32,000 nt of DNA from Candidatus Electrothrix sp. GW3-4 (GCF_037902255.1 NZ_CP147990.1:3240001-3272000); one strand, 5' to 3'. Shown: positions 25,856 to 28,973, numbered from the stretch's first letter. The notes: generated by a model from the letters alone, not told the origin. Translations and numbers: made by a program.

Positions 25856-26239
25856 ATGGCCTACAGACGTAAATCATCTCAAGTCATCGTTGATGCCCAG
25901 GAACGCTCTGCCGACTTGCGGGCAATTGATCCCAATCTCGATTTAGGCAATAATCTCAACGTTGCTGCCTATGCTGCCAAGATAAGCGAGGCGCAAACAG
26001 CTCTGGATACCTACAACGGGTTACTTGCCCAGGCTGATGCGGCGGGCAATAATTTCAAGGCAATAGAAAAGGAGCTTCGCGATCTATCCTCGCAGATGCT
26101 TGCCGGGGTGAAAGTGAAGTTCGGCAGGGATAGCAATGAGTATGAGATGGCGGGAGGTACCCGGTTGAGTGATATTAATCGGCATCCGCATAAAAGTGGG
26201 GGAGAGTCGGGGGATGAGTGGGGAAAAGAGAGTCCGTAA
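25856..26239 (+). CDS. Small (127 aa) predicted all-helical protein of unknown function; first gene of the caspase-like operon
   Basis: The ATG at 25856 is preceded by GGGAGGAAG. Basic N-terminus (MAYRRKSS), central coiled-coil-like region (AKISEAQTALDTYNGLLAQADAAGNNFKAIEKELRDLSSQM), Gly/acidic tail. Confidence 0.65.
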   Translation: MAYRRKSSQVIVDAQERSADLRAIDPNLDLGNNLNVAAYAAKISEAQTALDTYNGLLAQADAAGNNFKAIEKELRDLSSQMLAGVKVKFGRDSNEYEMAGGTRLSDINRHPHKSGGESGDEWGKESP

Positions 26240-26310
26240 CAGTTTGTATTGAGTGAGTTACAAGAGAAATACGAATAAGATATTTTTTTTGCTAATAAGG
26301 AGAAGGGAAG

Positions 26311-28107
26311 ATGAAAAGAGCACTCGTTGCAATTGGTGTAGATAAGACAGGTGGAAATCTGCCAATACTTAATGCTGCAGCCGATGGAGCGTCTAAAATC
26401 ACAGCATGGGCAACGAACCAGGGATTCGACACCTCTTTGATTACTGATAAAGAGAAGGCTGTTACCTTAACAGATATCTATTCTTCAATTTATCATTTTG
26501 TAAATAAAGGGATATATGATCAGCTCATTGTATATTTTTCCGGTCATGGTTTTTTAAGAGGTTCTAATTATGAAATATGGCTTCTCTCTGGAGCACCTGA
26601 GAATTCAAATGAAGCTATTAATGTAAGCGGATCAATTGATCTGTCTCGTAACTGTGGAATATCCAATATTGTTTTTATCTCTGATGCCTGTAGGTCAATT
26701 CCTAACACGATCCAAATGAATTATATTTCCGGCGGTGTTATTTTTCCTGCACAGGCTCCACCGACAGCATCCACTATAGAAGTTGACATTTTTTATGCAA
26801 CCACTCCTGGTAATCCCGCTTTAGAGGCCGGACCGGATGAGGCGGTAGAGGATTACAGAGGTATTTTTACTAACTGTCTACTTGAAGCATTACGTGGAAA
26901 AGTTGGCACCGTCATACAGGAAATAGAGGAGGCCAATGGAACAAAAAAAAGTGTTATCGCATCGCGTGCTCTTAAAAACTATCTCCCTAATAAAGTTGCA
27001 GATGCTGCTTCTGGTATCGACATTAAACTTGAACAATACCCAGAGGTTAGAGTTGAGTCAGATTGCCCTCCAAGTTATCTTGGAGAAGCAGAAGTTGAGT
27101 CCGTAACGCCGTCTCCACTTCCTCGGGTATACTCAACCGAACGCACCGTCCATCTCGTTAGAGCTCATTATCGTATGACTTTGGCTCCAGCAAGCATTCG
27201 ATATGACTTTCACATACCGGAGTCGAGAACGAGGATATTAAGAGAGATTCAGCCTGCTCTTAATACAAGATTAGGGGTAAGAATCTTAAAAGATGTCAGG
27301 AGAATATCGGACACAAGAGAACGGCAGGACTTTGAGGCTCATACAGGTTTTAATATTCGTGGCGCAAAACTTGCTTCTGCGATAACAACTGATGCTTCTT
27401 GTCGAGTATTTGAAGAATCAAATTCATTTCACAGAACTGTTGCTCGTATTCCTCGGTCTGATATTGAGGAGTACTCCCTTAAATATCATTCTATAGTGAT
27501 GCGTTTTGATACAGGGAGAGGTATCTGTCTTGCCGTTTTACCAGGGTATATAGGAACGGTAATTGTTGCAGAAAATGGACATATTCTTTCTGTTAACTAC
27601 ACGCCTGCACAGGGAACAACGTTGTATAATGATTACCAAGAAGAAGCGGATAGCCTTGAGTATCGACGAGCATTTGCTGCGGTTAGAACTGGTAATGGTT
27701 CTGCTCTTGATAAAAGAGAAGTAAATGGGGCGGTACGTTATTTTATGAAGCTTAAAGCACCTGATCCTACACTTGGTATTTTTACATCATATTCCTGCGC
27801 ACAGGTTGGATTGTATAAAGAAGTTAAATCAATATATCAATATATGCGAGAATGTTCTGTTCCTATCCCTTTTGATATTGCAATGTTTGCTAATAGAAAT
27901 AACCTTCTGCAAGAGGACGTTAGTAGATATTCTCCTGCAATGCCAATGCTTGCGCAGGGGTGGGCTCTTTTAGGTGCTATTGAACGATTGATGCATCCGG
28001 CGGTATTACGCGCACAACGATATCTCATTCCATCTTTGTGGAGTACTTTTTCAGAACAAGGCATAAATATTCTTGAATCAGCTATTACTTCAGGAGAATT
28101 ACAATGA
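26311..28107 (+). CDS. Caspase-like (peptidase C14/CHAT-type His-Cys) protease with a C-terminal region of about 460 aa and unknown fold
   Basis: ALVAIGVD strand, YFSGHG (His79, nt 26545-26547) and FISDACRS (Cys127, nt 26689-26691) occur in caspase order and spacing. AAGGAG RBS. Confidence 0.8.
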   Translation: MKRALVAIGVDKTGGNLPILNAAADGASKITAWATNQGFDTSLITDKEKAVTLTDIYSSIYHFVNKGIYDQLIVYFSGHGFLRGSNYEIWLLSGAPENSNEAINVSGSIDLSRNCGISNIVFISDACRSIPNTIQMNYISGGVIFPAQAPPTASTIEVDIFYATTPGNPALEAGPDEAVEDYRGIFTNCLLEALRGKVGTVIQEIEEANGTKKSVIASRALKNYLPNKVADAASGIDIKLEQYPEVRVESDCPPSYLGEAEVESVTPSPLPRVYSTERTVHLVRAHYRMTLAPASIRYDFHIPESRTRILREIQPALNTRLGVRILKDVRRISDTRERQDFEAHTGFNIRGAKLASAITTDASCRVFEESNSFHRTVARIPRSDIEEYSLKYHSIVMRFDTGRGICLAVLPGYIGTVIVAENGHILSVNYTPAQGTTLYNDYQEEADSLEYRRAFAAVRTGNGSALDKREVNGAVRYFMKLKAPDPTLGIFTSYSCAQVGLYKEVKSIYQYMRECSVPIPFDIAMFANRNNLLQEDVSRYSPAMPMLAQGWALLGAIERLMHPAVLRAQRYLIPSLWSTFSEQGINILESAITSGELQ

Positions 28108-28973
28108 ATCTCATCTTTATTCATGGTCGTGATCAACAAGGTAAAAATCCTCAAGAACTCCAAACACAATGGGAAGAGGCATTAGAACGAGGATGGAGCA
28201 ATGCGGGATTAAGTCGTCCGAATAATCTTAATGTTATTTTTCCCTTTTATGGAGATAAACTTATTGAGTTAATGGAGGTGCTAGAGACTCCTTTAGTTGC
28301 TGATGTGACTACAAGGGGAGCTGCCCCAGATACAAAAGAAGCGTCCCTTCGAGGAGAAATGCTAGCTGAATTAGCGGAGAATGCGGGTATCACAGATGAG
28401 GATATCAAAGCGCACTACTCTGGACAAGCCGTTGAAAAGGGGCCTTTAAATTGGGAGTGGATTCAGGCTATCTTGAGAGCCTTGGATAGTACCCCGATGG
28501 GAGAGGCAACGTTGGATCTTTTTACTAGGGATGTGTATGTATATCTAACGAATAGAGCTATCCGAAAAGCGATTAACAAAATTATTAAGGATAAGTTTAA
28601 TGGAGAGCCTTGTGTTGTTGTCGGCCATTCTCTTGGAACCGTGGTTCTTTATAATGTACTTCGTGAGCTTGGATCCCAAGCAAATGCAAAATACTGCATG
28701 ACGCTTGGTTCCCCGCTTGGAATCAAAGCAATCAAACGTCTTCTTGTTCCACCAGCACTTGCAATGCCCACAGGGGTATTAGAATGGTTCAACGCATACG
28801 ATGAGCGTGATGTTGTTGCGTTACGACCTCTTGATTCAGAGGTATTTCCGATTGACCCTTCTGTTCGAAATAAATCTGACGTTGATAATCATACAGATAA
28901 TCGTCATGGAATAGTCGGATACCTTGATGATAGAGAAGTCGCACAGTGGATTTATAATGCATTAACTCAATAA
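28104..28973 (+). CDS. Alpha/beta-hydrolase-fold serine hydrolase (lipase/esterase-like)
   Basis: LIFIHG at the N-terminus, nucleophile elbow VVVGHSLGT (Ser176, nt 28629-28631), LGSPLG, and candidate Asp (YDERD) and His (DNRHG). The start overlaps the upstream stop (ATGA). Confidence 0.8.
   Translation: MNLIFIHGRDQQGKNPQELQTQWEEALERGWSNAGLSRPNNLNVIFPFYGDKLIELMEVLETPLVADVTTRGAAPDTKEASLRGEMLAELAENAGITDEDIKAHYSGQAVEKGPLNWEWIQAILRALDSTPMGEATLDLFTRDVYVYLTNRAIRKAINKIIKDKFNGEPCVVVGHSLGTVVLYNVLRELGSQANAKYCMTLGSPLGIKAIKRLLVPPALAMPTGVLEWFNAYDERDVVALRPLDSEVFPIDPSVRNKSDVDNHTDNRHGIVGYLDDREVAQWIYNALTQ

Follow-up and report, generated by a model that had tools for sequence, protein, structure and literature searches.

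The question raised by this locus is how many of three adjacent genes belong to one system, and what that system might do. The stretch of DNA analysed (32,000 nt in full, hereafter the window) comes from Candidatus Electrothrix sp. GW3-4 (GCF_037902255.1, NZ_CP147990.1:3240001-3272000), a cable bacterium that we take to belong to the Desulfobulbaceae. The three genes, open reading frames ORF1, ORF2 and ORF3, lie on its plus strand between positions 25856 and 28973 and encode 127, 598 and 289 amino acids (aa), respectively. An earlier note on this DNA had read them as a three-gene operon for a small helical protein, a caspase-like protease and an alpha/beta-hydrolase, and had proposed an undescribed conflict or defence system. 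The ORFs are all present as the note had them, co-directional, with 71 nt between the first two and an ATGA overlap between the last two. The unit, however, is corrected here from three genes to two: ORF2 and ORF3 are likely to form a self-contained protease-effector zymogen module, for which the residues that matter can be named (C127 of ORF2; R71/G72, K112/G113 and S176 of ORF3). The word 'undescribed' has to be given up as well, since the pairing of a caspase domain with such a hydrolase was reported in 2020 (PMC7159879) and a pair of this kind was biochemically characterised in a 2025 preprint (PMC12642450).

The evidence that ORF2 and ORF3 belong together is their near-universal pairing. 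A scan of genomes, one per species, gave 154 relatives of ORF2, and 80 loci were retained. In 79 of these the gene that comes immediately after the ORF2 homolog is a homolog of ORF3, and the remaining locus stops at the ORF2 match. ORF2 (26311-28107) and ORF3 (28104-28973) share a stop/start overlap, ATGA at 28104-28107 on the plus strand, from which translational coupling can be read; overlaps of this type are 4 nt long in 35 of the 79 loci and 1 nt long in six more, the others having short gaps or an N-terminally extended hydrolase. The 80 loci span at least 10 phyla, and pairs were found in Alpha-, Beta- and Gammaproteobacteria, Myxococcota, Bacteroidota, Acidobacteriota, Planctomycetota, Verrucomicrobiota, Chloroflexota, Hydrogenedentota and candidate phyla. 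In two loci (L040 and L074) ORF2 and ORF3 seemed to be fused, but frame-aware mapping identified the long stop-to-stop ORFs as high-GC frame artefacts and the fusions were rejected.

No third conserved partner emerged when 627 flanking ORFs were clustered, with no family present in more than five of the 80 loci. Defence proteins are scattered among the 144 nearest flanking proteins (IetA/IetS, DpdF, PDC-S41, TRIP13, a DRT reverse transcriptase, a TIR effector, nSTAND1 and a Schlafen-type helicase), and no defence family recurs among these 144. The Pfam families considered for these flanks are 25 of the 103 matched, including every family with at least two members. Over the 80 loci the flanks are wholly variable.

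What such a pair may do is suggested by published work. Kaur et al. (eLife 2020) described the caspase domains of their conflict systems as always accompanied by a neighbouring alpha/beta-hydrolase gene (PMC7159879), and Evans et al. (bioRxiv, 14 Nov 2025) characterised the caspase/hydrolase pair of Lysobacter capsici AZ78 biochemically (PMC12642450). In the latter work, LcCaspase (catalytic Cys129) cuts LcHydrolase at Arg73/Gly and Arg117/Gly to give fragments of 8.1, 4.7 and 19.8 kDa, the R/G motifs are kept in 161 homologs, and the cleaved hydrolase is not a nuclease (PMC12642450).

The pair from the window resembles the L. capsici pair in several respects. Both consist of two genes, for a caspase-like Cys protease and for an alpha/beta-hydrolase of ~290 aa, and the catalytic Cys127 of ORF2 has nearly the same position as Cys129 of LcCaspase. 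ORF3 carries two dipeptides, Arg71/Gly72 (28314-28319, plus strand) and Lys112/Gly113 (28437-28442, plus strand), that are predicted cleavage sites; the first corresponds to R73/G of LcHydrolase and the second, a conserved [R/K]-G dipeptide, may be set beside R117. Cuts at both would yield fragments of 8.18, 4.29 and 19.85 kDa, to be compared with the published 8.1, 4.7 and 19.8 kDa. Both sites are under strong conservation. A basic residue occupies site 1 in 80/80 locus homologs (with Gly following in 79) and in all of 120 database homologs (Gly in 119); for site 2 the counts are 80/80 (Gly in 77) and 119/120 (Gly in 119). As judged from sequence, then, the testable defining features of an LcCaspase/LcHydrolase-type module appear to be present in ORF2/ORF3.

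By its motifs, ORF3 is a Ser-Asp-His hydrolase of the alpha/beta-hydrolase fold. Its catalytic residues would be Ser176 in GHSLG (codon 28629-28631, plus strand), Asp236 and His268, together with the HG oxyanion motif at aa 7-8, which forms part of IFIHG. The HG motif and the three residues are invariant in the homologs from all 80 loci as well as in the 120 database homologs, in agreement with the Ser hydrolase that the earlier note had recognised from IFIHG and GHSLG. Pfam matches of ORF3 to alpha/beta-hydrolase families (DUF900, Abhydrolase_6 and Lipase_3) are all sub-threshold, and comparison with solved structures gave matches at the level of the nucleophile elbow only. The family is large (3653 homologs in the database search) and better conserved than its partner: identity to the same genomes is 54-75% for ORF3 versus ~35-56% for ORF2.

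The product of ORF2, annotated as 'caspase family protein', is a clan-CD (caspase/metacaspase-like) Cys protease that probably cuts after basic residues. Both ORF2 and ORF3 are 100% identical to annotated proteins of Candidatus Electrothrix sp. GW3-4 (P0001 is the record for ORF2). A domain of the caspase/metacaspase fold at aa 1-258 (26311-27084, plus strand) was delimited with Pfam, alignment and Foldseek; the Peptidase_C14 match (PF00656, aa 19-197) scores 26.9 bits against a gathering cut-off of 21.4. The catalytic dyad is made by His79 (motif YFSGHG, codon 26545-26547, plus strand) and Cys127 (motif FISDACRS, codon 26689-26691, plus strand), with Asp125 two residues before the Cys; all three are invariant across 36 aligned full-length homologs. 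In Arg/Lys-specific metacaspases such as TbMCA2, an Asp two residues ahead of the catalytic Cys lines the S1 pocket, and Asp125 of ORF2 therefore fits cutting after basic residues.

The AlphaFold2 model of ORF2 has a predicted local distance difference test (pLDDT) value of 82.7 and a predicted template modelling score of 0.86. A Foldseek search with this model gave 64 PDB matches at E<=1e-3 (best E 3e-6), with Arabidopsis metacaspase 9, yeast Yca1 and caspases 3, 6, 7 and 9 at the top. The layout of a caspase or metacaspase that the earlier note had seen in ORF2 is thereby borne out, and with its intact His/Cys dyad the protease looks competent. The database search returned 471 homologs of ORF2; among the matches listed the proteins are ~560-680 aa long, and almost every one aligns from end to end.

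Behind the protease domain lies a variable linker (aa 259-332; 27085-27306, plus strand), predicted to be helical, with column conservation of 0.15-0.25, many gaps and a low-confidence model (pLDDT <50 at aa 269-306). It leads to a conserved C-terminal domain of ~265 aa (aa 333-598; 27307-28104, plus strand), a putative sensor or regulatory domain. In AlphaFold2 models this domain has eight beta-strands (aa 346-432), read as a beta-sandwich, followed by about nine helices (aa 437-593) that weakly resemble tetratricopeptide repeats (TPR). No Pfam family was matched when the domains of ORF2 and 17 homologs (18 members) were scanned at E<=5. The best match in a PDB fold search had an E-value of 0.13, with the TPR proteins BepA, PgaA and PcrH among the weak matches; viral structures gave no match to the domain, and PDB and viral structures together nothing better than E ~0.06.

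The C-terminal domain is nevertheless widespread. A HMMER scan of 1.84 billion cluster representatives (50% identity) found 1432 that match it at E<=1e-3. Among the best 150 of these the match reaches or nears the end of the protein, the full-length ones being ~560-650 aa long and the others fragments. We think that the domain probably senses or relays an activating cue. That it is a new kind of sensor, one which switches on the caspase directly and independently of a nucleoside triphosphatase (NTPase), is a tentative idea that we hold to be possible though unlikely.

These elements can be arranged into a mechanism. ORF3 would be made as an inactive zymogen. A cue, possibly a phage, would activate ORF2 via its C-terminal domain, the putative sensor, and active ORF2 would cut ORF3 at Arg71/Gly72 and Lys112/Gly113. 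The inhibitory middle fragment (~4.3 kDa) would be removed, leaving an N-terminal piece of 8.2 kDa and a C-terminal one of 19.9 kDa to form the active Ser176/Asp236/His268 hydrolase, its target presumably an ester, a lipid or a peptide. The active hydrolase would kill or arrest the cell, as in abortive infection or programmed death. Folds, catalytic residues, the near-universal linkage and coupling of the two genes, both conserved [R/K]-G dipeptides and the lack of a third conserved partner were computed here. The cleavage and toxicity steps are carried over from the L. capsici pair, whose behaviour ORF2/ORF3 may be expected to share. The esterase or lipase-type death effector under protease control that the earlier note had suggested would thus have its counterpart in L. 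capsici, with ORF3 carrying the corresponding dipeptides.

Several points weigh against this interpretation. The second site of LcHydrolase is Arg, whereas ORF3 and most of its close homologs have Lys there; and the likeness to the pair of Evans et al. was established by gene order, Cys position, site positions and fragment masses rather than by alignment. The fold of ORF3 is assigned from sequence, a predicted structure having been used for ORF2 alone. Defence genes around the pair are modestly enriched, by a raw count uncorrected for genome background. No convincing terminator was detected in the gap between ORF1 and ORF2, so that read-through from ORF1 is possible, yet an evolutionary link between them is absent. 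An antiviral role of the pair, finally, is a suggestion of ours, because the available text of Evans et al. reports cleavage and fragment toxicity and no phage-protection assay (PMC12642450).

The alternative that survives best is that the pair serves mobile elements, stabilising plasmids or islands by post-segregational killing or inter-element competition. Relatives of ORF3 occur on 41 plasmids, 19 of them conjugative. Agrobacterium Ti plasmids are among these and hold a full pair in the company of genes annotated as ParB N-terminal domain, zincin-like metallopeptidase and toprim; on one such plasmid the pair is diverged, and its caspase aligns with the whole of ORF2, the C-terminal domain included (E 1e-17). 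Coupling proteins of type IV secretion systems neighbour the pair in three loci, and in the window the pair has toxin-antitoxin modules on both sides and belongs to an inserted island. The contigs of the 80 loci, however, are mostly 50 kb to several Mb long and were taken as chromosomal, and no conserved labile antitoxin-like partner was seen among the flanking families of the 80 loci. A large conserved putative sensor domain in ORF2 suits signal-dependent activation better than simple addiction, and Evans et al. report protection against phage by related protease-effector modules whose effectors differ (PMC12642450). On balance we regard a role in the maintenance of mobile elements as unlikely.

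Phage genomes offer little that bears on the family. Relatives of ORF3 in IMG/VR are only 25-27% identical, and the family is essentially absent from phage genomes. Two 'phage' matches to ORF3 in a phage collection were rejected: they come from a bacterial contig under a wrong label, on which a PGAP1-like hydrolase stands by itself. The sequence L095 (CAKLQH020000003.1, 'Acinetobacter phage MD-2021a') carries gltX, tRNA genes, a gene for a sulfate-binding protein and cusA, and resembles a mislabelled bacterial chromosome.

A second alternative is a housekeeping or physiological function without any part in conflict: the caspase would mature a lipase or esterase that works in lipid or envelope turnover or in the response to stress. 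The HHpred comparison of Evans et al. does point LcHydrolase towards lipases and oligopeptidases, and stress-response roles are raised there for some protease-effector modules (PMC12642450). Such a function accords poorly with the patchy, strain-specific spread of the pair (the only cable-bacterium copy on record is the one described here), with its completely variable neighbourhood and its carriage on plasmids and islands. Neither the N-terminus of ORF2 nor that of ORF3 resembles a signal peptide, as judged by eye, and co-expression of the L. capsici hydrolase fragments is lethal to E. coli (PMC12642450). A purely housekeeping function is therefore quite improbable.

The weakest alternative concerns ORF1 (25856-26239, plus strand; 127 aa counted from ATG, or 158 aa if translation began at a TTG at 25763). 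In a three-gene operon this small helical protein would take part in the caspase/hydrolase system as its substrate, inhibitor or adaptor. Its direction and distance from ORF2, the gap without a convincing terminator and the low GC that it shares with the region speak for this idea, but its distribution makes it most improbable, since jackhmmer, run over every ORF of >=40 aa, found homologs of ORF1 in 0/80 pair-bearing loci.

The relatives of ORF1 tell where it belongs. There are 187 homologs at E<=0.01, most of them unnamed metagenome proteins, and all that carry an organism name are from Electrothrix or Electronema. The family members are ~120-130 aa long and occur in several copies per genome, with an 82%-identical paralog in the GW3-4 genome itself. 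Among the paralogs examined, one lies next to a tyrosine integrase (L081), one next to a TSP_3 repeat protein (L083) and one next to a DUF2971 protein and a transposase (L088), and none is beside a caspase or hydrolase. Searches with ORF1 gave no match in Pfam, PADLOC or NCBIfam, and in PHROGs one weak match (E 0.004) to a family without known function.

A related metagenomic contig, L087, has mutS, a toxin-antitoxin pair other than that of the window and a 91%-identical ORF1 at the same position after mutS, with wholly different genes downstream (for proteins of 89 aa, 478 aa and, with TPR, 1421 aa). DNA homology between the window and this contig covers mutS and positions 25501-26189, ending short of the 3' end of ORF1 (26239). 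Taken together, the absence of ORF1 from the 80 loci, its copies beside unrelated genes and the synteny with L087 lead us to judge ORF1 a lineage-specific resident of a variable hotspot and, on this sequence evidence, not part of the module. The three-gene system of the earlier note thus does not hold, and its suggestion of a protease acting on the small protein becomes unlikely, because ORF1 is missing from the pair loci and its copies adjoin unrelated genes.

Two further observations were made at ORF1. A repeat of its 3' end (26134-26195) lies at 6597-6658 of L087 (88.7%), which gives the impression that cargo inserts at this point. A 16-nt inverted match between the 3' end (26201-26216) and 29957-29972 was left unused, ~0.2 such matches being expected by chance by our estimate.

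The expression signals around the three genes are as follows. Ribosome-binding sites of the AGGAG type precede ORF1, ORF2 and ORF3. A hairpin followed by a U-rich tract (29001-29050, plus strand) is a candidate intrinsic terminator of the ORF2/ORF3 pair; the hairpin, which the earlier note had pointed out together with its T-tract, folds at 29001-29036 with -15.8 kcal/mol (z = -3.5, and 0/200 shuffles fold as well). A simple terminator scan overlooked it because its outer loop is long. The sequence scan gave no convincing candidate for a sigma-70-like promoter of the pair.

The pair is strain-specific, low-GC, horizontally acquired cargo in an island of ~6.8 kb. The GC fraction is 0.41-0.42 across 25-29 kb of the window versus 0.56-0.59 in mutS, and the mutS tail (24509-24559) has a second copy at 31361-31411 (84% over 51 nt, E 1e-11). 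The GW3-4 copy is the sole cable-bacterium homolog of ORF2 on record, the next match being 55% identical. More generally, the region after mutS (24560-31411 in the window, 2110-8565 in L087) looks like a hotspot for variable cargo in Electrothrix. The setting given in the earlier note, with repeats of the mutS tail, toxin-antitoxin genes on both sides, a 21-bp array and low GC, was found in every part.

The other features of the island are the following. A BrnT/CopG-like toxin-antitoxin pair occupies 24621-25183 on the minus strand. Upstream of ORF1, at ~25480-25654, is a repeat array with a 21-bp period, also scored at an 84-bp period and made of AACAAAGGAGTCTTGATTGCA-like units; its region is conserved in part in L087 and more weakly in L088. 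The array was considered as part of an ORF1 unit and rejected, since a tandem repeat was undetected upstream of the paralogs in L081 and L083. Downstream of ORF3 come a Phd antitoxin (29245-29529) and an ORF of 77 aa (29523-29756) that begins YLLDTNILSE, like PIN/VapC. For such a toxin the ORF is too short, and Pfam gives no match; we take it for a probable decayed or truncated PIN toxin gene. A direct repeat, 29051-29175 and 29955-30079 (125 nt, 93% identical), brackets Phd and the truncated PIN-like ORF. It copies the 5' end of a 305-aa ORF (30000-30917), whose MRVANPIYDVVFKFLLGDMRIARLIL start is also present at 29096, and looks like the result of a toxin-antitoxin module insertion with target duplication.

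It remains to place the pair among known systems. The hydrolase family of ORF3 also occurs with other partners. On a plasmid of Streptomyces jietaisiensis (NZ_CP108340.1, L086 6915-8903) we found a 662-aa fusion of a Trypsin_2 protease to an ORF3-like hydrolase (30% identity). On a megaplasmid of Rhodococcus ruber (NZ_CP145320.1, L094 8926-14838) a homolog of ORF3 (29% identity, E 4e-19, full-length homology) is followed by the gene for a WD40 protein of 1645 aa, which has the caspase-type motif YYTGHG in its N-terminal part. Both cases link the hydrolase family to proteases independently. They are homologous to ORF3 in the hydrolase but have other protease classes or sensor domains, and no [R/K]-G sites can be made out in the distant hydrolases of Rhodococcus and Streptomyces. 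The Rhodococcus protein, with its WD40 and caspase-type motifs, is in line with the 'beta-transducin repeat' sensors that Evans et al. mention (PMC12642450). The flanks of the two Rhodococcus genes carry HTH/PIN, a DEAD/DEAH helicase, SIR2, integrases and a transposase, and look like a defence island.

Clan-CD proteases serve as executioner or activator, and proteolysis gates cell death, in gasdermin/protease systems, type IV Thoeris (TIR + caspase), EACC1-caspase systems and type III CRISPR with CHAT/Craspase, much as is proposed here. No gasdermin, TIR, EACC1 or CRISPR gene was found near the pair, and neither ORF1 nor ORF3 has a gasdermin or TIR match in Pfam or PADLOC. Gasdermin systems use a pore former, while the effector of the present pair would be an enzyme zymogen. 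As to the EACC1-caspase type, ORF2 scores 24.1 bits against NCBIfam NF047832 (caspase_w_EACC1), for which the cut-off is 140, and the small transmembrane/EACC1 gene is absent upstream. By these features the pair is not a gasdermin, type IV Thoeris or EACC1-caspase system. The pair matches no system of PADLOC-DB 2.0, where ORF2 has a weak partial 'caspase' match and ORF3 none.

There is a likeness also to the VMAP-MoxR-vWA ternary system (PMC7159879). It, too, has a caspase domain with a neighbouring alpha/beta-hydrolase gene, and the caspase of VMAP likewise forms the N-terminus of a larger protein, in which beta-strands and helices are mixed towards the C-terminus (PMC7159879). The resemblance is loose and was drawn by description: seven strands and 6-7 helices are published for VMAP-C (PMC7159879), versus eight and about nine in ORF2. 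A MoxR AAA+ or vWA gene was found neither in the window, where ORF2 is followed by ORF3 and then Phd, nor among the listed Pfam families of the 144 flanking proteins, and none recurs in the 80 loci, and the pair is therefore not a VMAP-MoxR-vWA ternary system. VMAP is described as confined to ternary systems (PMC7159879), whereas the ORF2/ORF3 pair is NTPase-free and stands alone.

Set beside these systems, ORF2/ORF3 belongs to a large clade, NTPase-free and often plasmid-borne, in which the C-terminal domain makes up more than 1,400 clusters at 50% identity and the hydrolase has more than 3,600 homologs. The comparison ties an anonymous cable-bacterium pair, 'caspase family protein / hypothetical protein', to an experimentally backed mechanism in which a zymogen death effector is freed by two cuts. 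If the C-terminal domain of ORF2 should indeed be a direct, NTPase-independent sensor, the pair might also clear damaged or infected cells from the conductive multicellular filament of the cable bacterium, and would be the minimal stand-alone form of bacterial caspase immunity.

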